Shown here in pieces: positions 5,711 to 60,949 of a DNA stretch of 64,000 nucleotides. The notes beneath the pieces were generated by a model. It did no database searches. It was not told where the DNA came from and saw only the letters and a program-made list of their open reading frames with translations. Position 1 is the stretch's first letter. Each line of letters begins with the position of its first letter. This DNA is from an uncultured virus (IMG/VR IMGVR_UViG_3300007511_000006). Taxonomy: Duplodnaviria; Heunggongvirae; Uroviricota; Caudoviricetes. The stretch lies in the IMG/VR virus record IMGVR_UViG_3300007511_000006; one strand, written 5' to 3'. Position numbers and translations under genes: made by a program.

Positions 5711-7780
5711 TTAACCAGTGCGTTTTGTGATCATTTCAGTGATATTAGCAGGGCACGGTGCGTAGTGACTAAACTCCATACTAAACTGACCACGGCCGCT
5801 CGTCATACCACGCAAGTCGCCAATATAGCCAAACATTTCACCAATTGGTGCTTCTGCCCAAATGCGTACCTTTTGTCCACTAACTTCTTGATTGCTAATC
5901 ATGCCGCGGCGTCTGTTAATGTCGCCAATAACGTCACCAACTTTATCCTCTGGAGCAATTACGTCAAGTTTCATGACAGGCTCTAGTAATTGTGGTCCTG
6001 CTTTAGGCATGGTTTGTCTAAAGCCACCTCGAGCCGCTAATTCAAACGCAATAGCACTTGAGTCAACTGCGTGTGAAGAACCGTCTGTTAATGTCACTTT
6101 AAAGTCTAACAACGGATAACCTGCTACAATGCCGTTATTAGCAGACTCTCTAAAACCTTTTTCAACAGCAGGCCAAAACTCTCTTGGCACATTACCACCG
6201 ACAACTTTTGATTCAAACTCAAAGCCGCCGCCTGATGGCAATGGCTCTATAGTATATTCAATATCACCAAATTGGCCAGAACCACCTGATTGCTTTTTAT
6301 GAACAAATTTGTCTTCCACTGTTTGTGTAATAGTTTCTCTGTATGCTACTTGTGGTTTACCAATACTTACTTCAATGCCATGGGTTCTTTTAAGAATGTC
6401 GCACTTAATGTCTAAGTGTAGTTCGCCCATACCCTTAAGAATAGTTTGCCCACTTTCTTGATCTGTTTCAACATGGAAGGACGGATCTTCAGCGACCATT
6501 TTACCAATAGCAGTTCCTAACTTATCCATGTCACCTTGTGTCTTTGGTTCAACAGCAATACTAATAACCGGGGCAGGGAATACCATTGGCTCTAGTACGG
6601 CGGGTTTATTTTTATCACACAGTGTATGACCTGTTTGTACAGTTTTCATACCAAGCAATGCAATAATATCGCCTGCTTGTGCAGAGTCCTTTTCTTCTCT
6701 ATTGTCGGCATGCATTTCTACAATACGGCCAACACGTTCGGACTTGCCTGTGCTACTGTTATAAATTGTATCACCTTTGTTAAGTTTGCCAGAGTAAATG
6801 CGTGTAAATGTCAATGCACCATACTTGTCGTCCATAATCTTAAACGCAAGTGCTCTTAGTGGTCTGTCATCATCAACAATAGCATGTTCACCTGTTTCAT
6901 TGCCTTCTAAGTCTACTTCTGGCTGTGGATCAACCTCAGTAGGATTAGGCAAATAATCAACCACGGCACTCAATACATTTTGTACGCCTTTATTTTTAAA
7001 TGAACTACCACAGAATGTTGGGAAGAAATCACAATTAATTGTACCCTTGCGAATACACTTTTTAAGATCTTCTTCGCTAATGCTGTCAGGATCCTCCATC
7101 CACTGCATCATTACATCGTCGTCTTGCTCTACAACTTGCTCTACCATTAGATCATAATATTCTTTGGCCTTGTCTGCCAAGTCTGCAGGAATGTCGCTAA
7201 TAGTGTAAGAAGTAGGATCTGCTGAATTTGACCAGGCCCATGCTTTTTGCGTAAGAATGTCTACAATGCCTACAAAATCATCTTCAGCACCAATTGGAAT
7301 AGCCATAATAACTGGTACTGCGTTTAAGCGATCTTTAATTTGCTCTACTACACGATAGAAATCTGCACCAACTCTATCCATTTTGTTAACGTAAATAACA
7401 CGGGCAACTTCACTGTCATTAGCATAACGCCAGTTTGTTTCGGATTGTGGTTCTACGCCTCCTACCGCGCAAAAAACACCAACGCCACCGTCTAATACTT
7501 TCAATGAGCGGTATACTTCAATTGTAAAGTCAACGTGTCCTGGTGTGTCAATAATGTTAAACTGGTGGTCATCCCAAAAGCATGTTGTAGCGGCTGACTG
7601 AATAGTAATACCGCGTTCCTGCTCTTGCTCCATAAAATCTGTAGTAGCGGCGCCGTCATGTACTTCGCCTATCTTATGGATTTTACCTGTTAGTTTTAAA
7701 ATGCGCTCTGTTGTTGTAGTTTTACCTGCATCAACGTGAGCGAAAATTCCTATGTTTCTATACTTTTGTAGATCTGACAT
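5711..7780 (-). CDS. fusA: Elongation factor G
   Basis: [41 protein letters not shown]; full length 689 aa. Confidence 0.97.
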
Positions 7781-10829: not shown

Positions 10830-10838
10830 GGTAAACCC

Positions 10839-14344: not shown

Positions 14345-15664
14345 TTAGTAATAGATTTTATATATTTCTCTTACGTCATATTCAGGGTGATGTTTTTGTA
14401 GTATTTCTAGAGCGTTTCGAATTCTACTATAATCATTTTCTTTATTGAATGTAAAGTTTTTCAAAGATTCAATTAGATTTTTTATTTGTTCAATATCATC
14501 GCTGTAAAAACAACTACTTTTCTTCAGTGTGTGTTCAATTTTCTCTCTGCAATTTTGGACGACATCATAGGGAACTAATCGCAAGTTAAAATCACTGCTA
14601 TCTACCATTTGAACAAGCCCTGCTATACGCACTCTCTTATGCATAGGTATTTTTTTATTTTTTAGATCCATAAAAGAAAGTAGTTCATCTAAATATGGCA
14701 ACGTTAACGCTGTTATAACTATATTAAACGAAACTGGAGTATGATCGCATTCTAGGCCAATCTGTAAATATTGATCAATATTTTTTTCTAGTTTTGTCCA
14801 TTTTACAGGATATCTCTGTAATTCAATCGCCGGGCCTACACTATCAATACTTAATACTAACATAACAAGTTTAAAATGCTTGATGATTTCAATGAATCTA
14901 GGATGAATCATTGTCGTATTTGTAGTTATTACTAATTCTATATTTTTACTGTGATCGCATTCTATCAAATATTCTAAAAATTTTAAATTTTCTAATATTA
15001 TAGTGGGTTCGCCGCCACTTAAATACAATCGAGTAATATTGCTTATTCTTTTTTCTCCAATAATATTTTTTAATCCTATTTTTGAAGGCCAATTATATTT
15101 TTTAAGTTTTTTAGAAGTTCTACTCGCACCCGCGTATTCATTGTCAGGCCTGCCTGTTTCAGAAAGATCATATTTAAATTGGCTTAAATCATCAACGCCT
15201 AGTCTATTAAAAAATCTTCCATAGGTAATACTATAATCACTATTACAAATTTTACATGCCAAGTTACATGTATTTCCAGACTGTATTTGATAAAAATAAG
15301 GATAGCTATCGTCTAATATAAAATTATTTTTAACACTTTTATCAACAACGTCTTGTATGTGAGGATAGCTATCCTCCGCACCAAGCGCCGCCTGGCGAAC
15401 ACTCCACATGCCACGTTCTTCAGAGTCCCAGCAATTCTGACATTCAGGTGCCTTAACTCCATTATATAGATTTTCTCGAAGTTTAAGCATCCTTTTGGAA
15501 TTCCACGCATCATTTAAAGTATGTGTGTTTATGTTATAGTGATTTCCGTTCTCATCCAAGTGGGCATACTCTTTATCGTTACTCGAGGCACAACAAAATT
15601 TTATATCACCATTGGTTTCTATTTCTTGATGGGCCCAGGGATAAGTGCAAAGTGGTTTATTCAT
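14345..15664 (-). CDS. Radical SAM protein with N-terminal SPASM/twitch-like Cys cluster
   Basis: CNLACKIC, SGGEP, TTNTT, SIDS; N-terminal C..CC..CxxC; start moved to the coupled ATG at 15664. Confidence 0.85.
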   Translation of the reverse strand: MNKPLCTYPWAHQEIETNGDIKFCCASSNDKEYAHLDENGNHYNINTHTLNDAWNSKRMLKLRENLYNGVKAPECQNCWDSEERGMWSVRQAALGAEDSYPHIQDVVDKSVKNNFILDDSYPYFYQIQSGNTCNLACKICNSDYSITYGRFFNRLGVDDLSQFKYDLSETGRPDNEYAGASRTSKKLKKYNWPSKIGLKNIIGEKRISNITRLYLSGGEPTIILENLKFLEYLIECDHSKNIELVITTNTTMIHPRFIEIIKHFKLVMLVLSIDSVGPAIELQRYPVKWTKLEKNIDQYLQIGLECDHTPVSFNIVITALTLPYLDELLSFMDLKNKKIPMHKRVRIAGLVQMVDSSDFNLRLVPYDVVQNCREKIEHTLKKSSCFYSDDIEQIKNLIESLKNFTFNKENDYSRIRNALEILQKHHPEYDVREIYKIYY

Positions 15665-16301
15665 TATCTTGTATTTTAGATTGGACAAATCTATCTAACC
15701 CTTCGTATGTGTCGTACAGCACATAACGCCACGAATCAAACTCTGCCGGATGTGGATATTCTTCTGGCTTTATAAAAATAAAAGTAATATTATAAAAATG
15801 TTTAAACAATAACTCAAACTGTTTTATCCATTTTTCTGGATTACGTGGTCCTTGCTTTTCGTTTCTATAATGTTCTGTATTTAGATATATGTTATTAGCA
15901 TACTTTTGGTTTTTTCCCTTGCCATAAAAGTCGTAACCCAACAACATAATAACATCTGCTTCTTCTTTTATAGCAGTATAAACAGCATACAATCCACTGC
16001 TCCAATTAATAGGTTGTTGGTATGTTTCTAAACCAAAATAAGGAAGATCGGGCAACACTCTTACTTTATCTTTTGCTAAGTAGTGCGCCCAATCCTTACG
16101 GGTGTAAAAGTTAGAGCGTAAGTGAACGCCATTACTGACTGCTTCTCTTGCCCTAAACTTATTACAGCATATCAAATTGTCAACGTGATTGTCTCGCCAA
16201 ATCGCGCCGCATCCGTATAACGGTCCTATGTCGCGCAACTTTTGTAAATCATAACTTTTGCGTGTCTCACCATTGCCAATACAATATGCTATTTTTTTCA
16301 T
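15657..16301 (-). CDS. DUF115/MptE-like (sialyltransferase-fold-like) protein
   Basis: IGNGETR, YGC, WSSG, LLGYDF; paralog of 27724..28311. Confidence 0.55.
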   Translation of the reverse strand: MKKIAYCIGNGETRKSYDLQKLRDIGPLYGCGAIWRDNHVDNLICCNKFRAREAVSNGVHLRSNFYTRKDWAHYLAKDKVRVLPDLPYFGLETYQQPINWSSGLYAVYTAIKEEADVIMLLGYDFYGKGKNQKYANNIYLNTEHYRNEKQGPRNPEKWIKQFELLFKHFYNITFIFIKPEEYPHPAEFDSWRYVLYDTYEGLDRFVQSKIQDNE

Positions 16302-21006: not shown

Positions 21007-21465
21007 TTAATTAACATAATCATCAAATAAACCATGTATTACATCAACAGCATTTTGAAAATCGTTAAACACCCAATTTGCCTTCGCTTTAATAAGTGGA
21101 TGGTTAGCGAGATATTCATCATCTGTGACGACAATAAGAGGTTTTCTTAAGCCAATTGCCCAACCAATTTCAATAATTGTGCCATATGACGGTCTACGGT
21201 TATTTAGTTCTTTTGGCAAAAATGCTAATACTAAGTCACATGTTTCTGTGTCATACCAATTTTTAGCGGCAATTGCTCCGGGAGCATTAAATCTTGGGTC
21301 ATTTCCAGGACCATATGTTTCTCCTTGCATTGGCTCACAACGCAACGGAGAAATTCCAATAATATTAGGATTTAGTTTTTCACTAACTTCATTTCGCCAG
21401 TCGTTCGCTTCGCCGTAAGTGCATTCCGCAATCGGGCCTGCGAGATAGATGTATTTTTTAGTCAT
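21007..21465 (-). CDS. Nucleoside 2-deoxyribosyltransferase-like protein
   Basis: IYLAGPI, D..A, SYGTIIEIGWA. Confidence 0.8.
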   Translation of the reverse strand: MTKKYIYLAGPIAECTYGEANDWRNEVSEKLNPNIIGISPLRCEPMQGETYGPGNDPRFNAPGAIAAKNWYDTETCDLVLAFLPKELNNRRPSYGTIIEIGWAIGLRKPLIVVTDDEYLANHPLIKAKANWVFNDFQNAVDVIHGLFDDYVN

Positions 21466-25413: not shown

Positions 25414-26436
25414 TCAAGAAATAGCGTATTTGTTTAGATTGCGCTCGAATTCGCTCAAACGTTTATATATTGAACGCAATTCTGTAATTGTTGTCCAGTT
25501 ATGCAAGAATAATGCAAACCCACCATGTACTTTCTGGAACGCATTTGACACTTGCACTACTACACCTAATAATACAGCACCAGTAAACAAACTTGGACCT
25601 ACGATTAAGTAAGGCACAATAACCATTGCTTGATCATACATAATCATCCATGTGTCAAAATATCCATAGTGTAAGTACAAACGTTGATAGTTGAAACGTA
25701 TGCCTGTGAATAAACTTGCTAATGTTTCTGGTTGTGCATAGTTTACTTTGTCATCTTCACCAAACACTAAATCCTTTCTAAATGCGGCTTCGACACGTTG
25801 ATTGTTATATTCAAGTCCGGGCAGTTTAATACCTACAAACCATGAAATAACCAACCCGCCTATAGATACAAATAATGCTACCCATACAAGTGAGCCAGGA
25901 ATGTCGCTAAAGAATGGAATAGTAACTGAAGAACTTAACCCCCACAGCACTGGAATAAACGCAACGAGTGTCATTAACGCCCGCACAACTTGCAATCCCA
26001 AACTTTCTACAATTCTAGCAAACCGATTGCAGTCCTCTTGAATACGCTGTGATGCACCTTCAATTTCTTCTTCAACATTGCGCCAACGCGGAATGTAGTC
26101 AAAGGTCATTGCCTCTCGCCAACGGAGTCCGTATATGCGTGTAAACCACCCAGTGAGCACCGCTAACAGCACATATGGAAATGCTAATACAGCAAATGAG
26201 GGATCACCATCACTAAAATATTGTAAGCCTAGTAATTTTTCATAAAATAAAGAAATGCCTTCACTGGCATTATTTTTATATTCACCAGACTTTTGTAGTA
26301 AGTCATAAAATCCACCATACCATGTGTTTATCGCTACTGTTAATTGAACTTGTAACCATAACGATATAACTAATAGAGAGCCACCGCCATAAGCCCATAG
26401 TGCCCATTTCTTAGTTTTATAAAATGCTTTTATCAT
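25414..26436 (-). CDS. sbmA: SbmA/BacA family peptide transporter
   Basis: INTWYGGFYD, WREAM, IEGASQRIQED, LPGLEYNNQRVEAAFRKDLV, ELRSIYKRL. Confidence 0.9.
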   Translation of the reverse strand: MIKAFYKTKKWALWAYGGGSLLVISLWLQVQLTVAINTWYGGFYDLLQKSGEYKNNASEGISLFYEKLLGLQYFSDGDPSFAVLAFPYVLLAVLTGWFTRIYGLRWREAMTFDYIPRWRNVEEEIEGASQRIQEDCNRFARIVESLGLQVVRALMTLVAFIPVLWGLSSSVTIPFFSDIPGSLVWVALFVSIGGLVISWFVGIKLPGLEYNNQRVEAAFRKDLVFGEDDKVNYAQPETLASLFTGIRFNYQRLYLHYGYFDTWMIMYDQAMVIVPYLIVGPSLFTGAVLLGVVVQVSNAFQKVHGGFALFLHNWTTITELRSIYKRLSEFERNLNKYAIS

Positions 26437-28795: not shown

Positions 28796-29577
28796 GAATA
28801 CATACTTCCATATAAATCTAAATAAGGTACTAACACATTTTTACACCAGTCACAATGACCTTCATAACTCGGATGCATCCCGTCTTCATAGAGGGTAATA
28901 TTTTTATCTATAGACCATTGCAGTATGCTTTTTTCTAGAGGTATTACTTTAATATTAGAATATCTATGTAAAAAATCCAATGTTTGTGGGTACATCTCGT
29001 CTTTGTATTCTCCATACCAATCCCAACCAAAATATAATATTATTTCTTTGACCGTATTAGACCATAAGCCTATATTAACAAGCGTTTCTTGCAAATGATA
29101 AATTGTTCGGGTAAGGCAGCCAAATTTCATTTCATAATGAAATCTTTGATTGTTTGCTCTAATACTTATTGCTTTCCTGTTAAAAATACTCCATTCTTCT
29201 TCAGTATAACTTTTTAGTTTATTGTGATAGAACCACATCCAATCCCAGTCAGGTTTCTTCTCAACGTCGTCTTCCCCATATTTAAGACCATGAAACTCTA
29301 CATCTTGATCGTCATTCAATAGATAAAAAAGTCTATCTGGCGCTGTTAACTGCCAAAGTAGTGTGGTATCTTTATTAATTAAATTTTTTGCATAAAGATT
29401 AGATAATCTATGGTGTTGTAAATAATTGTCTCCACCGCCTTGTGAAATATGTTTAATATCTAAACTATAGGTACCATTTAAATAGTGCACATAGCCGTGC
29501 TGTTGAGTTAAACTACATCCTGTTAAACTACATCCTAAAGCAACATATTTGTAAGGCGTTTCTTCTTTCGTTTCCAT
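28792..29577 (-). CDS. SGNH hydrolase-like protein
   Basis: ALGCSLT (duplicated), WQLT..DR, DGMHP; start set to the ATG 5 nt after TAAATA. Confidence 0.6.
   Translation of the reverse strand: METKEETPYKYVALGCSLTGCSLTQQHGYVHYLNGTYSLDIKHISQGGGDNYLQHHRLSNLYAKNLINKDTTLLWQLTAPDRLFYLLNDDQDVEFHGLKYGEDDVEKKPDWDWMWFYHNKLKSYTEEEWSIFNRKAISIRANNQRFHYEMKFGCLTRTIYHLQETLVNIGLWSNTVKEIILYFGWDWYGEYKDEMYPQTLDFLHRYSNIKVIPLEKSILQWSIDKNITLYEDGMHPSYEGHCDWCKNVLVPYLDLYGSMYS
29507..29536. repeat. 15-bp direct duplication GTTAAACTACATCCT x2
   Basis: Encodes GCSLT-GCSLT. Confidence 0.9.
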
Positions 29578-29589
29578 ACACATATTTAG

Positions 29590-29848
29590 TGGGGGCGACT
29601 TTGTTAAGAAGGTGTCGCCCCCGAAACCCCCTACGCGACCGCTAATTAGGCGGCTAATGCGTAATCGTAATAATCGTCATTTGCAATTATATAGTTTGCT
29701 GTTTTTTAATATGGAACTGCTCCCATATGTCGTCCATTTATCCTCTTCACCCTGTCGAAACTGTGTCACCCCCGTAAAAAATTTGGTGGAGGTGCCGGGC
29801 ACTGCCCCCGGGTCCAGAATGCGTACTTTCAACTTCATACGACAATCA
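29590..29848 (-). ncRNA. ssrA: tmRNA, circularly permuted two-piece type; tag (A)ANDDYYDYALAA
   Basis: Minus strand order: acceptor piece ending CCGGG-GGCAGTG-CCCGG-CACCTCCACCA (CCA end at 29784), 10-nt spacer, coding piece starting GGGGGTG (29773) giving G3.U70, tag frame 29684-29646, terminal hairpin 29591-29622. Confidence 0.93.
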
Positions 29849-29852
29849 AAAT

Positions 29853-29860
29853 TATTTATA
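29853..29860 (-). promoter_or_regulatory. T4-type late promoter TATAAATA upstream of the tmRNA
   Basis: Exact TATAAATA on the minus strand. Confidence 0.7.
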
Positions 29861-29874
29861 TAGGTGTAGAAGAA

Positions 29875-29900
29875 TAAAGGAATACCTGAGCATTCCTTTA
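29875..29900 (-). terminator. Hairpin at the end of the bL33 gene
   Basis: TAAAGGAAT...ATTCCTTTA inverted repeat. Confidence 0.5.
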
Positions 29901-30071
29901 TTTAATTTTCTTTTCTTCAAACCAGACGTGTTTTCTTAAAACTGGATCGTATTTCTTTTTACGTAGTTTTTCAGGATTGCGTCCGTTTTTAGTAGTAGTA
30001 TAATAGTAGCCAGTGCCTTCTGTTGACACTAGTTTAACTATTCTAATTGATTTACTAGTAGGATAAGACAT
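29898..30071 (-). CDS. rpmG: 50S ribosomal protein bL33 (Cys-free type); not in the ORF track
   Basis: Manual translation [57 protein letters not shown] (57 aa); ATG overlaps the upstream TAA. Confidence 0.93.
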
Positions 30072-30403
30072 TAGTATTGATTTTTTGTTGTGTTGTCGGC
30101 AAACGCATGATTGTCAATAACATGTTCTTTTGCTTTTTCATTTGTCATTTCATCAGATGTTTCCGGAATAAAAGGAACATCAAGATTTGTGTAAGTGTTA
30201 TACCAACGTGATGATGGGCCCCATGTTGCGGGCCCGCAATCGAAATATGGTGTTTCAGTGTACCTATGTGTTTCTTTGAGTATTTGTTTTGAATTTGATT
30301 CTTGCAGATCTTTACAAAATGCGTAAAAAGTTTCTGCTTTTTCAACATCGCCTTCTGCAAGTTTGAGACACTCTAATTTTAAAGTTGAGTCATCCATAAT
30401 CAA
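30071..30403 (-). CDS. Hypothetical protein
   Basis: LKLECLKLA...AETFYAF N-terminal motif. Confidence 0.55.
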
Positions 30404-30411
30404 ATCCTATA

Positions 30412-30579
30412 TTAGTCTTGCCAAATTCTCCATGCACCGTAAATAATAGCGGCCCATGCAATCCAAGTAACTAGTGGTGAAAATAATAGTGCAAGAACAC
30501 CAACACCTACTAGTACTGTGCCATCCCAAGTTGATCTTTCTGACCATTTTGCTTTGGCCCAATCAATTAAATTAAACAT
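30412..30579 (-). CDS. Small membrane protein (55 aa); not in the ORF track
   Basis: MFNLIDWAKAKWSERSTWDGTVLVGVGVLALLFSPLVTWIAWAAIIYGAWRIWQD with AAGGAG RBS. Confidence 0.75.
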   Translation of the reverse strand: MFNLIDWAKAKWSERSTWDGTVLVGVGVLALLFSPLVTWIAWAAIIYGAWRIWQD

Positions 30580-30602
30580 AATAAGCTCCTTTAAAATATA
30601 AG

Positions 30603-30902
30603 TTATTTATCCGCTTCTACTTTAACTTGTAGCGGATAATTATTATTTCGTGCCAAAAGTGTCACTTCAATACCGTGTTGTTCAGCAATTTCATATGGCA
30701 AAATAGCAACAATAGCAGAACCTTCTGCATCTACTTTATATGTTAGTTCTTGTGCTTCTTCTAATGTGTGGCTAAACACAGTCATAAGAACATTAACAAC
30801 AAAGTCCATTGGTGTTACATCATCATTGATGAATATAACTTTATACAATGATGGCTCTTTTAAATCTAATTGCTTTTTAATCTTGGTTGCAGTATCAGAC
30901 AT
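30603..30902 (-). CDS. clpS: ATP-dependent Clp protease adaptor ClpS
   Basis: PSLYKVIFINDDVTPMDFVV, EIAEQ, YPL. Confidence 0.9.
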   Translation of the reverse strand: MSDTATKIKKQLDLKEPSLYKVIFINDDVTPMDFVVNVLMTVFSHTLEEAQELTYKVDAEGSAIVAILPYEIAEQHGIEVTLLARNNNYPLQVKVEADK

Positions 30903-31465
30903 TAATTATCCTTTTCGTAATCTTTCTTAATATTTTTATCTACAAAGTCTTTTAGTCTATATATTTTATATCTTGCGCCTTCTCGAGTTTGTCCACTTTG
31001 CCCTCGCTCCAGCATACCCTCTAAAAATTCAATAACTAGTGGGTTTCCTTTTTTCTTTGCTTCTCTTCCACGTTTAAGTTCTTCTTGCATTTCTCGTGAG
31101 AAAGGTATTTTATATAAACGAGTATTTCTCTCTCCTAAATGTTGCACCCATATTTCTATTACATGCCCTTGTCGTTGTCCATCAAGTAGCACAACTTTTC
31201 CTGAAGGGTATGTAGGAAGTGCATATCCTAGAAAATTATTTAACTTCACTATTGTACTATAGAATAAGAAAAAAATCAATGGAATTGTTAAAAACTTTAT
31301 ATAAAACTTAGCTGGTGTTTTTAGTAATGCGTATAATACTAATATTGCTAATACTAGCATGGCACCCAATTGTAAACCAAACTCGTATATAATATTATAC
31401 CAGTCTGATAAAACGATTTCATCCGTAGTATAATCAGTAAAATCTATTATTTCTTTCTCTGACAT
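30902..31465 (-). CDS. Membrane protein, third gene of the MotA/ExbB-like module
   Basis: Two TM helices then a soluble domain (IEIWV...TRLYKIPF). Confidence 0.6.
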   Translation of the reverse strand: MSEKEIIDFTDYTTDEIVLSDWYNIIYEFGLQLGAMLVLAILVLYALLKTPAKFYIKFLTIPLIFFLFYSTIVKLNNFLGYALPTYPSGKVVLLDGQRQGHVIEIWVQHLGERNTRLYKIPFSREMQEELKRGREAKKKGNPLVIEFLEGMLERGQSGQTREGARYKIYRLKDFVDKNIKKDYEKDN

Positions 31466-31467
31466 AA

Positions 31468-32298
31468 CTAATTAGTTCCCTCTTGTTGCCATTTTCTCAA
31501 TTGAGTTGTCATTCCATCCCATAGACTAGGATCATATGTATCACCAATTGCCATAGGATGATTGCCATTATCGTCTTCAAAGTGTGTTAACCCATCTGTA
31601 TATACAAATGGTGTCGGATGATTATTAACGTATTCTATAGAATATGTATAACTTTGGGTACCGTCTGGGGTTGCGATTCCATTCTCTCTTTGTACAACTG
31701 TAAAGTTAAATGCAGTAACTTCTTCGCCAGTTTCTGTCATTTCAAATTTGGCAGTAGTAATTTCTTTAAACGGATTTACTCTTACTAATTCAACTGTTAC
31801 AGGTATTGGATATTTGGGAGGATTTGGAGATATGTCCTCAGGATTATCTGCTCCCGTGTATCCGGAAAGTCTTGACCGATGTGCATAATAGTGTACATTA
31901 ACTGTCCATTCACCTGGAATCCAGCCACGTATAGTAGCAACTTCAACATTTTCATCTACTGCTACTATAGTGCCGTCTGCTAACATAAGTGTATCGTTTG
32001 CCGCGCCCAAATCATCTCTATCTAAATGCATTAAGCCTGATGTGCGCGATTTAAAACTAACAACATTACCTTCAGGATCTTTTACCCACAAGTCAATATC
32101 ACTGTAATTGCCAACTTCCCAAGTCAATGTAATAATTAGTTCAGACTTAGGGTCTATTTTTTTATTCGTAGGTATAGGAGGTTGTATTAGCAAAAAAGAG
32201 ATAACAAACAGAAATACGAAACCTACTAATGTATTAAAAAGTAGATCAGTAAATCCTAGTCCTGAAAATTTTGATCGCTCACGCTTTCCTGTGGTCAT
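31468..32298 (-). CDS. ExbD/MotB-like single-TM protein with a periplasmic domain
   Basis: GFTDLLFN TM helix with Asp; DIDLWVKDPEG and LDRDDLG motifs. Confidence 0.6.
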   Translation of the reverse strand: MTTGKRERSKFSGLGFTDLLFNTLVGFVFLFVISFLLIQPPIPTNKKIDPKSELIITLTWEVGNYSDIDLWVKDPEGNVVSFKSRTSGLMHLDRDDLGAANDTLMLADGTIVAVDENVEVATIRGWIPGEWTVNVHYYAHRSRLSGYTGADNPEDISPNPPKYPIPVTVELVRVNPFKEITTAKFEMTETGEEVTAFNFTVVQRENGIATPDGTQSYTYSIEYVNNHPTPFVYTDGLTHFEDDNGNHPMAIGDTYDPSLWDGMTTQLRKWQQEGTN

Positions 32299-32749
32299 AT
32301 TCTAAGTTTATCAATTGAAGTTTTGAAAGTAACGAACACGTTAAACCCACCAATGTAGTAGTTAATGCTGTACTCATACCAGCAGCCATGTCGCGAATGA
32401 CTTCTTTTGCCTGTCCGATGTTTGATAAATCTAGATCGTTAAACGAGCCACCAAGCATTATAATAAATCCAGTTACTGTTCCAATTAGTCCTAGTGATAC
32501 CATCGACTCGGCGAAGAACCAAGATACTTCTATAGATCTAAAGTTTAATGGTTTGCGTTTAGAAACTTTGTATGTTTGTAACCCTATATTGGCTGTTACG
32601 CCTGTAAACAATGCTATAATAAAGAAACTAATTTTTGTTTGGTCTAAATACCAAAGAGTACGCCACATATCAAAATAATATAATACTGCGGCACTACATG
32701 CTATTACGCAGGTCAATAACCACCACTTTAAGAAACTATTAGACTTCAT
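32279..32749 (-). CDS. MotA/TolQ/ExbB proton channel family protein
   Basis: LGLIGTVTG and GMSTALTTTLVGL; start at the ATG 5 nt after TAAATA. Confidence 0.8.
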   Translation of the reverse strand: MKSNSFLKWWLLTCVIACSAAVLYYFDMWRTLWYLDQTKISFFIIALFTGVTANIGLQTYKVSKRKPLNFRSIEVSWFFAESMVSLGLIGTVTGFIIMLGGSFNDLDLSNIGQAKEVIRDMAAGMSTALTTTLVGLTCSLLSKLQLINLEYDHRKA

Positions 32750-32792
32750 TAATATATTTATGTAAAAGAATATTATTATAAATATTTGTACC

Positions 32793-33860
32793 ATGCACGA
32801 CAAAAAGTTCTTTTGTATAGAGCCTTTCGTAAGTCTTTCTATAGTTAAAGAAGATCATATTTTTCCTTGTTGTCTTAATGAAGGGCAAAAAAGCACTCAA
32901 AAAGATGACCTATGGAACGATCCTTATCTTGAAAATATACGAAAACAAATTCTAAACAACGAAGTTCCTGAAGAATGTCGCGCCTGTGTTGAACAAGAAA
33001 AGTTTGGTCGATATAGCAGACGATTACATTCTAATGATGTTTGGTTAGAACAACACGGCAATTTTGAAGATGCTCTTGAAAATGATGCTCCGTATAAGTT
33101 AGATTTTTGGACTGGAAACTTGTGTAATTTGGCTTGTAGTACTTGTACATATACAAATAGTTCATCATGGTTTACACTTCTTAAAAAAGCAGATAAAGCA
33201 GGAAAAACTGATTTACGTTATAAAGGAAACTATGTAAGTAATTTAGATTACTCTTATGAATTTAAAAAAGAAGATATTCCGAATATTGACTTTAAAAATA
33301 TGGAAAATATACACTTCAACGGCGGTGAACCCTTGCTAACAGATTCACACTTTAAAATTTTAAATTTAATTCCGCCAGAACAAAGAAAGGATGTTTATGT
33401 CATTTATAACACAAACGGTACCGTCAGAATAGATTTAGAAGATGAAAAATGGAGTATTTTCAAAGAATACAAAAGTGTCGATATGTGTTTTAGTATAGAT
33501 GGCATTGAAGAAACATTTAATTATGTTAGATGGCCTGCTAAATGGGAAGAAGTACAAAGCAACATTGATCTATGGGCTGAATATTGTTATGGAAAATATG
33601 ATGACTGCCACTTTGAAATGAGTGTAAACATGGTAAAAACTCCGCACAATTATACAACGTTTGATAATGCCGTTAAATATGTCACTGATCGTTGGTTTAC
33701 CAAACTTATTGCGATTCGAAACGCAAGCATTGATGAATATGTGTTTACTACTAATGATCATTCTTTTATGGATTGGTCAGACGCACAATTTGAAGAATAC
33801 ACAAAGACAGAAGAATTTTTCTTGCAAACAAAAAATTTAGAAACACTACGAAATCTTTGA
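32793..33860 (+). CDS. Radical SAM protein with N-terminal SPASM/twitch-like Cys cluster
   Basis: CNLACSTC, NGGEP, NTNGT, SIDG. Confidence 0.85.
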   Translation: MHDKKFFCIEPFVSLSIVKEDHIFPCCLNEGQKSTQKDDLWNDPYLENIRKQILNNEVPEECRACVEQEKFGRYSRRLHSNDVWLEQHGNFEDALENDAPYKLDFWTGNLCNLACSTCTYTNSSSWFTLLKKADKAGKTDLRYKGNYVSNLDYSYEFKKEDIPNIDFKNMENIHFNGGEPLLTDSHFKILNLIPPEQRKDVYVIYNTNGTVRIDLEDEKWSIFKEYKSVDMCFSIDGIEETFNYVRWPAKWEEVQSNIDLWAEYCYGKYDDCHFEMSVNMVKTPHNYTTFDNAVKYVTDRWFTKLIAIRNASIDEYVFTTNDHSFMDWSDAQFEEYTKTEEFFLQTKNLETLRNL

Positions 33861-33869
33861 TAAATATTA

Positions 33870-33898
33870 TTGACATATTAAAGCAAAGATGCTATAAT
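33870..33898 (+). promoter_or_regulatory. Consensus sigma70 promoter for hsp20
   Basis: TTGACA-N17-TATAAT exact. Confidence 0.8.
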
Positions 33899-33964
33899 AT
33901 GTAATATAAGTGCTCAATTGGGAGGCTTATAACTTTACTCGCTTAATATAAGGAGGAACTTAAA

Positions 33965-34399
33965 ATGACAGAGTATAGAATCACATCTGGGAATCTAATC
34001 CCAACACTTAACCGACACATGGTAGGCTTCGATCGTCTCTTTGGCGATATGGACAGATTGTTTACAAGGGGCCAAGCACCATCTTACCCACCTTACAACA
34101 TCGAAAAACTTAGCGATACAGAATATGTTATCACTATCGCTGTCGCTGGTTTTGATCAAGGTGATCTTTCAGTAACCGTTGACAACGGCGTTCTTAATGT
34201 CTCAGGACACAAAGAAGATTCAGATAAGCAAACATGGTTACACAAGGGCATCGCTACACGCGACTTCCAACGCTCTTGGAACCTTGCTGAATTTGTTAAG
34301 GTTGTCTCAGCAGAGTGTAAAAACGGTATGCTTGAAGTTCGTTTGGTTCAAGAAGTTCCTGAAACCGCTAAACCCAAGGAAATTGAGATTAAATTTTAA
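33965..34399 (+). CDS. hsp20: Small heat shock protein Hsp20 (IbpA-like)
   Basis: VGFDRLF, YPPYNI, AVAGF, HKGIATRDF, NGML, EIEI. Confidence 0.95.
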   Translation: MTEYRITSGNLIPTLNRHMVGFDRLFGDMDRLFTRGQAPSYPPYNIEKLSDTEYVITIAVAGFDQGDLSVTVDNGVLNVSGHKEDSDKQTWLHKGIATRDFQRSWNLAEFVKVVSAECKNGMLEVRLVQEVPETAKPKEIEIKF

Positions 34400-34422
34400 T
34401 CTTTTTAGGGAGGAGATGGAAG

Positions 34423-34446
34423 TGGGGGCAGTTTGCCCCCATTTTC
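34423..34446. terminator. Terminator between convergent hsp20 and bS21 genes
   Basis: TGGGGGCA-gtt-TGCCCCA hairpin followed by a T-tract. Confidence 0.65.
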
Positions 34447-34470
34447 ATAGCAAATTTTGTATCTTAGTCG

Positions 34471-34782
34471 TTAGTATAATCTATTTTTACTAGGTATTCT
34501 TTCTGCTTGCTCTTTAAGATGCCGCTTGCGGGCAACGTCTCTTGCTCTTTTTCTTTTAATACTTGGCTTTTCATAATGTTCGCGGGCTTTTAGTTCTTGC
34601 AATTTGCCGTCGTTGTCTATTTTCTTCTTAAGTTTACGTATTGCCTTTTCAACATTTCCGTCATTAACCCAAACTCTGAGTCCTGTAATTTTTACTGGAG
34701 CCCGTTTATCTTTTTGTTTGAATGGCGCTCTTCTATTATTATTCCATTTTGTATTTCTATTATTCCAAGTTTGTGCCATCAT
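34471..34782 (-). CDS. rpsU: 30S ribosomal protein bS21 with an N-terminal extension
   Basis: VEKAIRKLKKK...REHYEKPSIKRKR. Confidence 0.9.
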   Translation of the reverse strand: MMAQTWNNRNTKWNNNRRAPFKQKDKRAPVKITGLRVWVNDGNVEKAIRKLKKKIDNDGKLQELKAREHYEKPSIKRKRARDVARKRHLKEQAERIPSKNRLY

Positions 34783-35168
34783 TCCTCCAAGTATTGTAGT
34801 GGCTCTATAATATTTTTTATTCTGTTTTTATTTAATAAACTATATGATTCTGCGATACTATCATCGCAAAAGTAATAGCAGTTATTTTTATTTAACATCC
34901 ATCCAAACACGTGAGCAATAATATGATTGTATCGTAAATCAATTATTATGATATCTGATTGTTGCGTAGTATTAAGCAACCAATCTATATTGTCATTCAT
35001 AACCGGATCATAGATACATAAACTAACATCTAAATCTACATGTTTTAGTGTATTTAAAATTTCTCTTTGATCTTCTAAACCACATGCCGCAATTAATATG
35101 TTTAATGCTGATCCGTAATATTTGTCAGGTGGAGTTATAAGTGTAATTGTGTTATTCGCCGAGGACAT
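34779..35168 (-). CDS. Hypothetical protein
   Basis: LITPPD start; coupled to neighbours. Confidence 0.55.
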   Translation of the reverse strand: MSSANNTITLITPPDKYYGSALNILIAACGLEDQREILNTLKHVDLDVSLCIYDPVMNDNIDWLLNTTQQSDIIIIDLRYNHIIAHVFGWMLNKNNCYYFCDDSIAESYSLLNKNRIKNIIEPLQYLEE

Positions 35169-37092
35169 CTTTACGTTTTAAGGTTGTTTGTAAGTATTCT
35201 TGTTCTTCTTCTGTAAACTCTGTAACACTTACACCATTATTTACACGTGACATTAAGTCGTCGATCTGTTTTTGACTTAATTTCTTTTGTTTGTCAGACT
35301 TGTTTAATTCTTTCTTAAGTTTTTCTATTTCTTTTTCTAACTTTTTAACTTTTTTAGTATCTTCTTTATGTACCACAAATGGTTTGCCTTCTAACTGTTC
35401 CTTTTCTACTACTTTCTTTTCTACAATTTTCTCTACAATAACTTCAACAGGAACTTCTTTAATCACTTCCTTTTCAACTATTACCTCTACTGGCACTTCC
35501 TTCTCAACCAGTTTCTCAACCTCTACTATCTTTTCAACTTCAACAGGAACTTCCTTTTCTACTATCTTCTCAACCTCTACTATCTTTTCTACAACCTTCT
35601 CTACTTCAACAGGAACTTCCTTCTCAACTAGTTTCTCAACTTCTACAATTTTCTCTACAACTTTCTCTACTTCGACAGGAACTTCCTTTTCTACTATCTT
35701 CTCAACCTCTACTATTTTCTCTACGACTTTTGGCTGATCAGTCTTTTTTTTACTAGCAGGTGGTTCTGTAGGTGGTGTTGGTTTTCGTGGTTTATCTGTG
35801 CGGAATCTTATTAGTGTCATATTACCAGCAATAACTAACAATACTGCTAATGGATCAAATACAAATATAATAACAATAATAACCCATCTTACAGCATCTT
35901 CCAGTAAGTCAGTCGTAATATCATTGCCATATATTAAACCAGCAATGTACTTAATTGGGCCCACTTCTGCTTCTAATTCTCTTACTTGGCTTGCTAACAC
36001 AAAACGTTCTTCATTTAATGTGTCTATTTGTGTATAATAGTTTTCAATTTCTATCTCTAACTCTTTTACTTTGCCTTCTACTTCGTCTGCTTTAACGCCC
36101 ATTTGCTCTTGTAATGATTTAATTTCATTATTAGCGGCGGTAATTTCTGCTTGTGTTTGCTGTCTTAACTCATCAATCTTTTGCTGATGTGGTTTAACTT
36201 TATTAGTGTAGTCTGCTCTTAATGCTGTTATTTGTTTTTGAACATCATCTGATACATCAATCTCTTTTTGTCGCAGTTCATTAATTTCGTTTTCAATTTC
36301 TCTAATTTGTGCGGCAAGTTCATCTCTGCGTGGTTGCTGTTCTTTTCTTAATTCTCTACCTTTTTCAACCCAATCTGTAATATTACCCCACGCACTTTTT
36401 TCTACACCTTTGTCTGTATATGCTTTAACATCAGTGTCTAATTGTGCTATTGTTTGATTAACACGCTCGATGGCTTGTTGTTTTACTACAACATCTTCTT
36501 GAACACGAGATTGTGCTACTTTAATGCGTTCTTCTTCTACGTCAATATTGTTTTCTAACTGCTCACGTAATGACTGTATCTGTGCTTCTTCTTGTGCTAT
36601 TAAACTGCTGACTCTATTCCAAGCACCATCACGTATTTGCTCTTGCTGTTCTATTGCTCTTGCTATATTTGTATTGTGTTGTCCTGTATCATTACTTTCT
36701 AATCTAGTAATTTTTTCTTTAGTAACATTTACTCTGCCATTATAGCGAGCAATTTTTTCATCAATACGTTCTACTTGTGCTTGTGCTTGTCCTGCGCCAG
36801 TAGTTTGTTCTACGTGGGCCTTGGATAAAAAGCCAAAGATACCCATAGAGGTAATAAACATTAGCACAACAACCGCAAGAGTAAGATAATACTTTAAAAA
36901 TTTAGGTATGTTGAACCAAAACTGGTAGAGCCACGAGGCAGTTACTAACTTACCTACTTCAAGAACCGCCCCCATAATAGCAATGGGTACAGCCGCGGCG
37001 GCAAATATAGCCATTAATCCTATAATGCTATAATATGCGGCAACGGCACTGATAGACAGCGCCGTCAATAGTACAAATAATGCAAAACCCAT
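35152..37092 (-). CDS. Membrane protein with a long coiled coil and VEKIVE repeats
   Basis: Three N-terminal TMs, heptad region, EVGPIKYIA...VFDPLA TM, EKIVEVEK repeats. Confidence 0.7.
   Translation of the reverse strand: MGFALFVLLTALSISAVAAYYSIIGLMAIFAAAAVPIAIMGAVLEVGKLVTASWLYQFWFNIPKFLKYYLTLAVVVLMFITSMGIFGFLSKAHVEQTTGAGQAQAQVERIDEKIARYNGRVNVTKEKITRLESNDTGQHNTNIARAIEQQEQIRDGAWNRVSSLIAQEEAQIQSLREQLENNIDVEEERIKVAQSRVQEDVVVKQQAIERVNQTIAQLDTDVKAYTDKGVEKSAWGNITDWVEKGRELRKEQQPRRDELAAQIREIENEINELRQKEIDVSDDVQKQITALRADYTNKVKPHQQKIDELRQQTQAEITAANNEIKSLQEQMGVKADEVEGKVKELEIEIENYYTQIDTLNEERFVLASQVRELEAEVGPIKYIAGLIYGNDITTDLLEDAVRWVIIVIIFVFDPLAVLLVIAGNMTLIRFRTDKPRKPTPPTEPPASKKKTDQPKVVEKIVEVEKIVEKEVPVEVEKVVEKIVEVEKLVEKEVPVEVEKVVEKIVEVEKIVEKEVPVEVEKIVEVEKLVEKEVPVEVIVEKEVIKEVPVEVIVEKIVEKKVVEKEQLEGKPFVVHKEDTKKVKKLEKEIEKLKKELNKSDKQKKLSQKQIDDLMSRVNNGVSVTEFTEEEQEYLQTTLKRKDVLGE
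35405..35730. repeat. Degenerate coding tandem repeats (VEKIVEVEK / EKEVPVEV)
   Basis: Recurrent ttctctac, ttcaac and aggaacttcc units. Confidence 0.85.
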
Positions 37093-37492: not shown

Positions 37493-38338
37493 TTAATTAT
37501 TATACATTTCCATAGCACGAATAAAACGTGTCATACCAATGCCACCGCCTACTCTTGGAAAGAAGTCCATTGCTAAAAAGTCTTCCAACTCTTTTTCAAC
37601 TCTTTCTCTACCAAACGTATCAAATAGTATATTAGCATAACCGCCGTCACTAATAGTATGGAACATATGTTTCATTTGTTCTTTATCTGTAGCACGTTCT
37701 GCTGATCCAATTGTTTCTTGTCCAGCAATAATAACATCAATCTTTGCCGCAGTTTCGCCATCGTCGTTTTGTTTCATGTTCCAAAATGGACTTGTGTAGT
37801 TTGGAAAGTTTTTAATCATTGCTACACGGCCATTAAAGTTTTGGCACATTTTTTCTTCATGCTCGTGTTCTAATTCTTTAACGCCGTAAATATCACACCA
37901 TTCTAAATAATCTTTAGCAACAATGTTTTCGCCATCGGACCATGTTAAGTAGTCCATAAGTTCGCGTTCCATCTTCTCTAAATCTAAAATAGTTCCTGGA
38001 AACTCAAACTCAAACATTGGAAATATTAGTTCATGTCTACCAGCTACCGGATTTGGCTCTTGCCTATAGGAGGTGGAAATACAAAAAAACCCCGGAACGT
38101 CGGGGCGTGTTAGTAATTCATGTTCGAGCCACATTTGGCCCGTTTGTGGCAGGGGCCATAGTTGCCCTGCGTAATTATAGGTCGCTATTGTTGTTGGATC
38201 TTCGCATGCCGCTAGTATGCTTAATCTATTTTGTGTGTGTACTTCTAAGAATCCTTTAGCCATAAAAAAAGACCTTAATAGGTCTGCGGCTTGTGTAAAG
38301 TGTTGTGGATTGATAAGTTGTGTCATTGTTTTCTCCAT
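37493..38338 (-). CDS. Class IIb aminoacyl-tRNA synthetase catalytic-domain-only paralog (Asx/Lys type)
   Basis: Motif 1 GFLEVHT, motif 2 SYRQE..RH..FPMFEFE, ETIGSAER, motif 3 GGGIGMTR; no N-terminal OB-fold. Confidence 0.8.
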   Translation of the reverse strand: MEKTMTQLINPQHFTQAADLLRSFFMAKGFLEVHTQNRLSILAACEDPTTIATYNYAGQLWPLPQTGQMWLEHELLTRPDVPGFFCISTSYRQEPNPVAGRHELIFPMFEFEFPGTILDLEKMERELMDYLTWSDGENIVAKDYLEWCDIYGVKELEHEHEEKMCQNFNGRVAMIKNFPNYTSPFWNMKQNDDGETAAKIDVIIAGQETIGSAERATDKEQMKHMFHTISDGGYANILFDTFGRERVEKELEDFLAMDFFPRVGGGIGMTRFIRAMEMYNN

Positions 38339-50449: not shown

Positions 50450-51128
50450 CCAAATTATAATATTGAGCAACGCGTCTGTTCCATTCGTTAGCTGCGTTCT
50501 CAAACTCCTTGCCTTCGATAACAAACTCTTGATAATTTAAGTCTTTAGAGCACATTAACACAACCCCGGTTTTAATGTCTGTACCAAACATTTCATTGTG
50601 TGCTTGTGCGTATGCGGCTAACTGGCAAAAATAGTTGCTAATCCATTCTTTTTTCTTAGGTTTATTAGTTTGCTTAAAGTCAAGTATTGCTAAGTTACCT
50701 TTCCAAAGTCCTACACAATCTGTTGTGCCTGCGTATAATCCTTCATAGTATAGCGAGACTTCTGTACCATATATTTCGCTAACTTTCCTAAGTCCTTCGG
50801 CAATAATAACATTTGACATGTTGTATGCTTTTTGGTGTATGACATTACTGCCAACTTTGCGTTCATGGCTCTCAATATATAATTCTAAATTTTTATGCAT
50901 TAGTGTGCCGACATTTGCGGCTTCTGTACTAATTTGCTGTGCTTGCGTTTCGCCAACACGCTTTTTCCAGTTTGCTAATGCTTCTCTTTCTTGTTGGGAT
51001 TTAGTCGCGTCTAATATAGTTGTAACGCTAGGAACTGCTGATCCATCAGGTAATTGATACTTGCGTTTTCTATCTATAGTCGTAACACGTTTTAATTCGT
51101 TGTAATCGTATTTTTCCAGTAATATCAT
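50442..51128 (-). CDS. PD-(D/E)XK exonuclease
   Basis: PSVTTIL, GT.MH, YAGTTD, ILDFKQ, QLAAY; TTGACA-N17-TATAAT ends 6 nt before ATG. Confidence 0.85.
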   Translation of the reverse strand: MILLEKYDYNELKRVTTIDRKRKYQLPDGSAVPSVTTILDATKSQQEREALANWKKRVGETQAQQISTEAANVGTLMHKNLELYIESHERKVGSNVIHQKAYNMSNVIIAEGLRKVSEIYGTEVSLYYEGLYAGTTDCVGLWKGNLAILDFKQTNKPKKKEWISNYFCQLAAYAQAHNEMFGTDIKTGVVLMCSKDLNYQEFVIEGKEFENAANEWNRRVAQYYNLDV

Positions 51129-60675: not shown

Positions 60676-60924
60676 TTATTGAATGGTTAATAGATAGATC
60701 AATGCTGAAAATAGTGCGGTGATAATGGAGCCACTAAGGACCCACATAGATTTGTATTTGTTTTTTTCTTGGACTAGCAAGTTATGCCTAATCTCATCGA
60801 GTTGCTGTTCAATGACAGTCAAACGACTTTCGATTCGTTCCATATTCTCCTCCAGGTACCCGTATCTCTCTGAGCAAATCTCAACGTGTGCCTCAAGGCT
60901 CTGCCTTTCAATTTCTGATGGCAT
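60676..60924 (-). CDS. Coiled-coil plus C-terminal TM protein (XhlA/holin-like)
   Basis: LEAHVEICSERY, heptads, one TM helix; AGGAG RBS. Confidence 0.55.
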   Translation of the reverse strand: MPSEIERQSLEAHVEICSERYGYLEENMERIESRLTVIEQQLDEIRHNLLVQEKNKYKSMWVLSGSIITALFSALIYLLTIQ

Positions 60925-60949
60925 AACAACTCCTAAAATGTGTAATAAT

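Follow-up and report, generated by a model that had tools for sequence, protein, structure and literature searches.

What do two ribosomal-protein genes do in a phage genome, and do they form one system with the translation genes around them? The question is raised by a 64,000-nucleotide (nt) stretch of DNA (below, the window) from the uncultured virus record IMGVR_UViG_3300007511_000006 of IMG/VR. A first-pass annotation of its letters had placed genes for ribosomal proteins bL33 and bS21 around a block with transfer-messenger RNA (tmRNA), ClpS and Hsp20 genes. Both are genuine phage-borne bL33 and bS21 genes; on this point we are practically certain. The features that carry this result, with coordinates in the window, are the following.

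29555..29882, minus strand: two-piece (circularly permuted) tmRNA gene, tag peptide ANDDYYDYALAA.
29876..29899, minus strand: 8-bp inverted repeat (AAAGGAAT / ATTCCTTT), directly 3' of the bL33 stop codon and overlapping the 5' edge of the tmRNA models.
29898..30071, minus strand: rpmG-like bL33 gene, 57 amino acids (aa), Cys-free (C- form), stop codon at 29900-29898.
34471..34782, minus strand: rpsU-like bS21 gene, 103 aa (102 aa from a second ATG at 34779).
34675..34782, minus strand: N-terminal tail of bS21, codons 1-36, Asn/Lys/Arg/Trp-rich and predicted to be disordered.

Translated open reading frames (ORFs) were compared with profile hidden Markov models, and both proteins scored above the curated Pfam and NCBIfam cut-offs for the families named in the first-pass annotation. 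bL33 matched Pfam PF00471 (E 2.3e-15, 57.1 bits, cut-off 25) over model positions 2-47 of 47, and among NCBIfam models it matched TIGR01023 (64.1 bits, cut-off 23.95) and NF001860 (67.3 bits, cut-off 50). With 57 aa it is within the 50-60 aa usual for the family, and it contains the core KLVS ... YTT.KN ... KYDPV.RKH that bL33 proteins conserve. Residues K13, L14, V15, S16, T25, K35, K40, Y41, D42, P43, V44 and H48 were invariant in alignment A2, and the same blocks were found in 69 cellular sequences. The gene was as first described, a 57-aa ORF without a single Cys next to tmRNA; the distance between the two is 16 nt. It had been called hidden, which is right only as to the ORF-length cut-off used, as public sources already name relatives from its clusters L33 and S21. 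Its start codon overlaps the TAA stop of an upstream 110-aa ORF (TAATG), and no Shine-Dalgarno sequence was found at it. The ratio of nonsynonymous to synonymous substitution (dN/dS, Nei-Gojobori, codon alignment) between the window and the related IMG/VR record G002 was 0.10; silent sites were saturated in more distant pairs.

The lack of Cys had been read as the mark of a zinc-independent paralogue. The best 80 cellular bL33 loci (57-74% identity) came nearly all from Gammaproteobacteria, with a few from Alphaproteobacteria, and of the 69 sequences that could be extracted from them 68 are Cys-free. The Cys-free state is thus the ordinary single-copy form of the proteobacterial donor group and carries no special meaning, and the zinc-sparing reading was discarded. 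Compared with the E. coli-type C- form of proteobacterial RpmG, the phage protein is alike in being Cys-free, in size (51-57 aa) and in sequence (62-74% identity over residues 12-57); it differs in having its own N-terminus (MSYPTSKS...), a gene beside tmRNA and coupling to a phage ORF. A tree of 74 rows and 55 columns, weakly resolved overall, placed the window, G002, G003, L194, L200 and L202 in one clade (support 99/99) apart from the other 68 rows, of which 66 are cellular and two viral. The separate six-row clade points to long residence in phages; the two further viral rows nest inside Pseudomonadales. Only five of 50,697 records in the GenBank phage collection matched bL33, all at 63.8% identity (two Salmonella genome records and three unannotated). 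These five were judged to be host-type sequence and were dropped as phage genes.

bS21 matched Pfam PF01165 (E 4.4e-16, 58.8 bits, cut-off 27) over residues 37-88 and model positions 2-54 of 55, TIGR00030 (58 bits, cut-off 28.95) and phrog_21469 (E 5.5e-17). At E <= 0.001 it matched 33 distinct PDB sequences. Residues 44-103 align to residues 12-71 of the solved 71-aa bS21 chains, the C-terminal ...RLY included, and since residue 12 of those chains corresponds to residue 44 here, about 32 residues precede the canonical N-terminus. An AlphaFold model of the core predicted helices at 44-57, 60-68 and 75-95, the expected bS21 build. The predicted local distance difference test score (pLDDT) was below 50 over most of residues 1-27, and the tail is accordingly predicted to be disordered. 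The start ATGATG lies directly 3' of GGAGGA and overlaps the TGA of the upstream 129-aa ORF (ATGA). In relatives this sequence is GGAGGA-ATA-ATG, against GGAGGA-ATG-ATG in the window, and translation therefore probably begins at the second ATG (34779), giving 102 aa.

The tail had been described as an Asn/Arg-rich extension of about 30 aa. The length stands, as does the richness in Asn and Arg; the composition was given incompletely, since residues 1-36 (N6 R5 K5 W2 F1 D1, net charge +9) are equally rich in Lys and contain two Trp. Doubt as to whether it is translated was removed by the reading frame: no in-frame ATG, GTG or TTG occurs between codon 2 and codon 61, and in G002 and G005 no in-frame start follows codon 1 at all, so that the tail must be translated whenever the protein is made. 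In alignment A1 the motif M-A-x-x-W-(N)N-x-N-T-x-W, with both Trp, was kept in 12 of 12 tail-bearing homologues (57-100% identity to the query), which also share a K-P-Y/F-like patch. Eleven of these are 100-108 aa long, and the twelfth, P0009, reaches 153 aa with a C-terminal extension; four shorter relatives in A1 are without the tail. dN/dS (Nei-Gojobori) was 0.07-0.24 for the core and 0.19-0.64 for the tail, where it was below 1 in six of six pairs. In an all-against-all library 3366 representative clusters matched bS21 at E <= 0.001; the tail was fully covered by P0002 only, and by P0039 from residue 9. The motif W-NN-x-N-T-x-W ... K-P-Y/F is confined to a small family of 12 clusters (about 2 of the 3366 representatives), and the tails found in other bS21 clusters are similar in composition (Asn, Lys/Arg, Tyr/Phe/Trp) but align poorly or not at all. 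As judged from these alignments, such tails are a recurrent feature, of which this one is a version specific to its lineage, conserved and under selection.

The tmRNA gene was identified using ARAGORN (permuted tmRNA, 29555..29876, tag ANDDYYDYALAA) and Rfam, where 29588..29882 scored 121.8 bits against RF04321 (gathering score 47) and 83.7 bits against RF01849 (gathering score 50). The acceptor piece, ending in CCA, comes first and is followed by the coding piece. The gene is kept in relatives, and the tag frame is retained with conservative or silent changes. From the bL33 stop codon there are 16 nt to the Rfam start (29882) and 22 nt to the ARAGORN start (29876). The 8-bp inverted repeat at this junction does not appear in the terminator scan list because it has only two G-C pairs. 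Among 29 viral bL33 loci scanned, bL33 directly adjoins tmRNA in eight, which are all eight loci of this clade, and in the other 21 no tmRNA lies within 3 kb. SmpB was sought using PF01668 and was found in none of five related viral records, all of them incomplete (CheckV 19-90%), while ten control genomes matched. The gene resembles the alphaproteobacterial two-piece tmRNAs of RF04321 and RF01849 in being full-length, above gathering scores and in having an ...ALAA-type tag; it differs in lying in a phage with gammaproteobacterial-looking EF-G, bL33 and PrkA. A literature search on two-piece tmRNA in jumbo phages gave no paper with 'two-piece' among the matches listed.

In two related loci (L197:3160-3620, from G003, and L192:470-1080; aligned to window 29560-29900, minus strand) the spacer that separates the tmRNA acceptor piece (...CCACCA) from its coding piece holds about 190 extra nt; the window and G002 have only about 12 nt there. 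The insert starts AAGGAGATTA..ATG and reads as a small hydrophobic ORF, which would place a gene inside the stretch normally excised from a two-piece tmRNA precursor. ARAGORN mis-parses these insert-bearing copies, and their tag in the alignment is ANDDYYEYALAA.

The published picture agrees with the statement in the first-pass annotation that bS21 is the commonest phage ribosomal protein and bL33 a rarer one. In the text of Mizuno 2019 (PMC6375957), bS21 makes up 88% of viral ribosomal-protein detections, bL33 was found on 12 contigs after at least two independent transfers, and two ribosomal proteins share a contig in 8 of 1403 cases. The ratio of nonsynonymous to synonymous polymorphism (pN/pS) given there is near 0.10 for viral ribosomal-protein genes and 0.09 for bL33, similar to the value of 0.10 obtained for substitutions here, and in the present tree, too, there is a phage clade besides the two viral rows that fall within Pseudomonadales. 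Neither bL33-tmRNA adjacency nor which ribosomal proteins co-occur is mentioned in the text and legends of that paper, whose Supplementary Figs 11 and 12 may draw this lineage. Huge-phage rpS21 proteins with N-terminal basic/aromatic extensions, as well as phage tmRNA and elongation factors, are described by Al-Shayeb 2020 (PMC7162821). The window bS21 is alike in its phage context and its extension of about 32 residues (R5 K5 W2 F1, +9), and it differs in its own motif W-NN-x-N-T-x-W ... K-P-Y/F, as set against the description in the text of that paper. With bS21 of the Pelagibacter phage HTVC008M it shares an S21 domain in a marine T4-like myovirus, purifying selection and 55.8% identity over residues 32-74; the tail of about 32 aa lies outside the match. 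The best match in GenBank phages was Salicola phage SCTP-2 (42.3% over residues 26-103).

The window corresponds to the reverse-complemented last 64 kb of virus record G001, bar a few substitutions and an indel near 40241. G001 is linear, has 201,690 bp and is estimated by CheckV to be 57% complete. It encodes T4-type portal, Gp23 capsid, prohead protease, gp25, gp15, tail sheath and large terminase proteins, together with gp32-like, UvsX-like and primase-helicase genes. Its capsid protein is 66.5% identical to that of PA5oct-like Pseudomonas phages, 65.7% to that of Vibrio phage 2.275.O, 64.3% to that of Sinorhizobium phage Phosso and 62.3% to those of GAP32, CBB and Serratia BF. By gene content the source is an uncultivated marine T4-like jumbo myovirus, not a bacterium. 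No tRNA gene was found in the 201,690 bp, tmRNA being the only gene of this kind. No further ribosomal-protein family was found among 285 ORF translations scanned with Pfam (one ORF was scanned twice); the scan covered ORFs of at least 35 aa, apart from those across the 20-kb cuts of G001 and those at 29612-29860, 50818-51054 and 60719-61003 on the plus strand.

The neighbours named in the first-pass annotation (tmRNA, ClpS, Hsp20 and, farther off, EF-G) were all confirmed. Besides the genes listed above, the block and its surroundings contain the following.

30071..30403, minus strand: 110-aa ORF of unassigned family, translationally coupled to bL33 and strain-variable.
30412..30579, minus strand: 55-aa hydrophobic ORF (orf55), between ClpS and the 110-aa ORF.
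30603..30902, minus strand: ClpS-like Clp protease adaptor, 99 aa (PF02617, E 3.2e-27), in the same place in G002, G003 and G004.
33870..33898, plus strand: match to the sigma-70 consensus promoter upstream of Hsp20 (TTGACA, 17 nt, TATAAT, with TG; 12/12), a consensus match only.
33965..34399, plus strand: IbpA-like Hsp20, 144 aa (PF00011, E 1.7e-16), with an AGGAGG Shine-Dalgarno sequence.
34779..35168, minus strand: 129-aa ORF coupled to bS21, with a nucleoside 2-deoxyribosyltransferase-like (flavodoxin-like) / DNPH1-like fold.
37493-38338, minus strand: class II aminoacyl-tRNA synthetase (aaRS)-like catalytic core, 281 aa, without an anticodon-binding domain.
5711..7780, minus strand: full-length EF-G (fusA-like), 689 aa, 22 kb from bL33 and outside the block.

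Synteny was examined by tblastn of 18 window proteins against four related IMG/VR loci (G002, 62 kb; G003, 158 kb; G004, 235 kb; G005, 322 kb). The order aaRS-like, 646-aa gene (a membrane coiled-coil), 129-aa ORF, bS21, Hsp20, radical SAM, MotA-like, orf276, orf187, ClpS, orf55, orf110, bL33 is kept in G002, G003 and G004. In these three tmRNA comes right after bL33, with one extra 238-aa ORF in between in G002. G005 keeps the block as far as orf187, and its contig stops 27 nt after the orf187 homologue. The apparent absence of ClpS, bL33 and tmRNA there therefore says nothing, and the notion that G005 lacks this cassette was dropped, its contig ending just before their expected place.

The 110-aa ORF between ClpS and bL33 had no Pfam or NCBIfam match and was 54% identical in G002 and 32% in G003; in contigs of four RNA libraries its centre (30142-30402, 259 nt) is swapped for 250 unrelated letters. 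Judged by this variation, it is a hypervariable gene wedged between conserved neighbours. The 129-aa ORF, whose pairing with bS21 is kept in G002-G005, likewise had no Pfam or NCBIfam family match. Its AlphaFold model (pLDDT 86.9) had 4mcj as best Foldseek match (TM-score 0.70, E 1.5e-4), and the predicted nucleoside deoxyribosyltransferase-like fold argues against its being a translation factor, a candidate role that was rejected. A second member of the nucleoside 2-deoxyribosyltransferase-like family lies at 21007-21465.

From these genes two host classes may be read. EF-G matched TIGR00484 at 952.7 bits (cut-off 659.4), and the domains GTP_EFTU, D2, EFG_III, EFG_IV and EFG_C are all present. 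Its relatives are 93% identical in G002, 85% in G003 and 82% in G005, tens of kb from the block (about 30 kb in G003). It is 66-75% identical to a second EF-G paralogue carried by 88 of 400 sampled Gammaproteobacteria; other gammaproteobacterial matches are at most 57% (the common fusA type about 55%), and those of two Alphaproteobacteria 52-54%. Any EF-G match was obtained in 347 of the 400 genomes, including four flagged unpublished, none of them among the 88. In cultured phages of the GenBank set no close copy was found, the best match being about 53% identical and host-type-looking. EF-G stands among unrelated genes: the complete trio PrkA-DUF444-SpoVR (7859-12779, minus strand; Pfam E 1e-152 to 1e-174) adjoins it. 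This trio resembles the yeaG-yeaH-ycgB starvation/stress kinase operon.

For PrkA (10839-12779) the identity to Gammaproteobacteria is 66-69%, and the phage protein as query retrieved no PrkA from the two Alphaproteobacteria compared. Gamma-like signals thus come from EF-G (66-75%), bL33 (62-74%) and PrkA (66-69%), and alpha-like signals from the two-piece type of tmRNA, with a T-arm near the RF01849 consensus, and from the bS21 core. None of the five Gammaproteobacteria with the most similar EF-G had a permuted tmRNA above cut-off. The bS21 core is 41-48% identical to two Alphaproteobacteria versus 37-38% to three Gammaproteobacteria, a thin comparison with only two alphaproteobacterial genomes in it. 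The phages closest in capsid infect both classes (Pseudomonas, Vibrio, Sinorhizobium). On such identities the ancestry of the genes appears mixed, alpha-like and gamma-like, and points to two host classes.

Marine metatranscriptomes (four runs of four studies) gave contigs 95-99% identical to the window. These span bL33, part of tmRNA, Hsp20 and several other genes of the block, and contig depth in the region peaks at Hsp20. One of them runs from inside tmRNA through bL33. The stretches 34466-35200 (bS21) and 32938-33700 are uncovered, and missing cover proves nothing. The strongest Shine-Dalgarno sequences of the block are those of Hsp20 (AGGAGG) and bS21 (GGAGGA). A 5-mer Shine-Dalgarno core was found in 6 of 79 window genes and a 4-mer in 22 of 79 (6% of random windows contain the 4-mer), these being rough counts made on longest-ORF start calls. 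A scan of the window gave no convincing dedicated promoter or terminator for bL33 or bS21; promoter-like sites numbered 41 versus 32.8 +/- 6.5 in shuffles. Hsp20 has the appearance of a gene that the host polymerase transcribes and that is expressed at a high level.

To our knowledge bS21 and bL12 are the only phage-encoded ribosomal proteins shown to enter ribosomes, and we know of no function for any phage bL33 or for bS21 tails. Both genes of the window are host-derived and are kept by selection, within a syntenic block with tmRNA, ClpS and an IbpA-like Hsp20. What they do was considered by analogy with their families. In infection, phage-made forms of two ribosomal proteins that are peripheral, loosely bound and exchangeable would enter host ribosomes. 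Phage bS21 would occupy the usual bS21 position on the 30S platform, by the 3' end of 16S ribosomal RNA (rRNA); the cellular protein sits there and affects initiation (Chen 2022). Its disordered, +9, Trp/Asn/Lys-rich tail may add RNA contacts and bias initiation or ribosome occupancy toward phage messages; an RNA-binding or initiation effect of the rpS21 extension is a prediction in the text of Al-Shayeb 2020 (PMC7162821) too. Phage bL33 would take its normal place near the exit (E) site of the 50S subunit and keep or tune elongation capacity. The E site is its location as given in the text of Mizuno 2019 (PMC6375957), where both bL33 and bS21 are placed in the loosely bound, exchangeable class that viral genomes favour. 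tmRNA, with SmpB from the host, together with ClpS and Hsp20 may handle stalled ribosomes and protein quality. That phage bS21 and bL33 substitute into host ribosomes, the tail adding RNA contacts, is a mechanism we favour, with appreciable reserve. In its favour, a pelagiphage bS21 was detected by mass spectrometry in purified E. coli 70S ribosomes (Mizuno 2019, PMC6375957). The identity of the genes, their conservation, purifying selection, the forced translation of the tail and the phage setting are observed; ribosome incorporation, selectivity for phage mRNA and cooperation among the genes of the block are what we infer by analogy.

Several points weigh against this mechanism. Ribosome entry of either protein rests on family analogy, and in the literature retrieved, as far as its accessible text goes, no test of phage bL33 incorporation was found. 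The tail is more relaxed than the core, with dN/dS up to 0.64, and is predicted to be disordered. DNA in the RNA libraries may be the source of the contigs obtained from them, in which transcript ends are not seen. As the genes point to two host classes, their fit to the host ribosome cannot be judged. The E. coli ribosomes that carried the pelagiphage bS21 were about 5% active in vitro (Mizuno 2019, PMC6375957, in its text); incorporation may thus inhibit, at least in a foreign ribosome.

The rival that survives best is plain replenishment, in which proteins without phage-specific activity top up two small, loosely attached components of the ribosome that are lost by turnover or run short after the phage shuts off host transcription, the tail being a tolerated decoration. 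Phage bL33 is close to the cellular form, passing an equivalog-level model and sharing 62-74% identity with proteobacterial bL33, and viruses tend to encode dynamic, exchangeable ribosomal proteins (Mizuno 2019, PMC6375957, in its text). The ordinary-looking EF-G is in line with the idea, given in the text of Al-Shayeb 2020 (PMC7162821), that phages maintain translation efficiency. However, the tail motif, its two invariant Trp and a dN/dS below 1 in all six pairs are not expected of neutral decoration, and the well-separated bL33 clade (99/99) indicates divergence on a path of its own. We hold replenishment to be unlikely, though it deserves to be taken seriously.

The first-pass annotation had gone further and had joined bS21, bL33, EF-G and tmRNA in a ribosome-remodelling and rescue kit acting on both subunits. 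Taken in the strict sense, this would be one coordinated system with interdependent parts. What stands of this is that two real ribosomal-protein genes, one per subunit, lie in a conserved tmRNA/ClpS/Hsp20 block of a genome that also has a full-length EF-G. All four genes are in one genome, bS21, bL33 and tmRNA within 5.3 kb, in a block syntenic in four records; bL33 and tmRNA are adjacent in every locus of the clade, and EF-G is kept in G002, G003 and G005. Interdependence is another matter, as EF-G lies 22-30 kb off among unrelated genes and outside the syntenic block, and rescue would depend on the host, SmpB being found in none of the five records. bS21 is coupled to a deoxyribosyltransferase-like gene and bL33 to a variable ORF, neither to a translation gene; 21 of the 29 viral bL33 loci have no tmRNA within 3 kb; and more than 99% of bS21 phages carry no second ribosomal protein (Mizuno 2019, PMC6375957, in its text). 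In jumbo phages, genes of a large accessory region can be expected to occur together without depending on each other. We hold a kit of this sort to be improbable.

An opposite effect on the host was also weighed. Tailed bS21 might act as a shut-off factor, displacing host bS21 and damping host or Shine-Dalgarno-dependent translation, and it might be autoregulated through its own strong Shine-Dalgarno sequence. The low activity of pelagiphage-bS21 ribosomes in the E. coli in-vitro system (Mizuno 2019, PMC6375957) would fit, as would GGAGGA at bS21 where only 6 of 79 window genes have a 5-mer core. For Flavobacteriales, moreover, McNutt 2023 (PMC9976891) reports that ribosomes lacking bS21 translate an rpsU that has an extended Shine-Dalgarno sequence. 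Yet the low activity was that of a heterologous ribosome, the Shine-Dalgarno counts are no more than approximate, the probable host is a proteobacterium and not a member of Bacteroidia, and bL33 is left unexplained. We give an inhibitor or filter of this kind little credence.

A joint reading would make ClpS, orf55, orf110, bL33 and the two-piece tmRNA a co-evolving rescue module which, with the tailed bS21, would yield a partly phage-specified ribosome. As parts of it, bL33 at the E site by the L1 stalk might adapt host ribosomes to the alpha-type tmRNA of the phage, the native tmRNA of the host possibly being one-piece; stalled ribosomes might be cleared with the phage-specific tag ANDDYYDYALAA; ClpS might steer ClpAP away from or toward tagged products; and the tailed bS21 with its unusually strong Shine-Dalgarno sequence might be an autoregulated initiation-preference switch. 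This reading in all its parts is very unlikely. An artefact in which host DNA was joined to a viral contig by faulty assembly or binning has next to nothing in its favour: such contamination does exist among GenBank phage records, as the five bL33 matches there (63.8%, two of them Salmonella genome records) indicate, but the same gene order recurs in at least four independent viral records of 62-235 kb and varied divergence, phage genes lie on both flanks, starts and stops overlap with phage ORFs, and the bL33 clade stands apart from cellular sequences.

Among the remaining genes, Hsp20 scored 112 bits against the IbpA model NF008013, under its cut-off of 212. The 281-aa aaRS-like gene showed weak AsnRS/AspRS/AsnA similarity, matched phrog_29758 (E 1e-124) and is 77-78% identical in G003-G005. 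A possible companion of ClpS (30603-30902, minus strand) is an arginyl/leucyl-tRNA-protein transferase C-terminal domain, PF04377, at L012:5876-6580 (plus strand; G001 65.9-66.6 kb), a weak match at 25.6 bits (cut-off 25; NCBIfam arginyltransferase E 3e-4). Together ClpS and the transferase-like gene would be parts of an N-degron pathway. Radical SAM/SPASM/twitch enzymes are unusually many in G001, where at least 14 ORFs matched PF04055, PF13186 or NF033640; six stand in a row at L010:874-8268, and in the window such ORFs lie at 14345-15688, 32793-33860 and 49010-50524. A full-length inner-membrane transporter of the SbmA/BacA family is encoded at window 25414-26436 (minus strand; PF05992, E 3.7e-122). 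Outside the window, ORFs of at least 70 aa are almost absent from a stretch of some 11 kb at L011:500-11500 (G001 about 40.5-51.5 kb); it holds many ORFs of 35-100 aa, mostly on one strand and without Pfam matches. Also outside it, L012:4740-4916 (plus strand) encodes a 59-aa Hc1-type histone H1-like protein (PF07432, E 1.5e-11).

Every component of the locus has a precedent in the literature, where viral bL33 and bS21, pairs of ribosomal proteins on one contig, rpS21 with a tail, tmRNA and elongation factors have all been described. Apparently new are details only, namely the conserved bL33-tmRNA adjacency, the W/N/K-rich tail motif and the mixed alpha/gamma ancestry, and the locus is a genuine, well-conserved but expected example. 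It adds a documented case and anatomical detail to the published picture, which it leaves unchanged, and its gene set is of the host-takeover kind known from other aquatic and huge phages. Few findings suggest as clearly as phage ribosomal proteins do that the host ribosome itself is edited by viruses, and this clade, with one protein per subunit, a sharp tail motif and tmRNA beside bL33, offers a compact, conserved test case.

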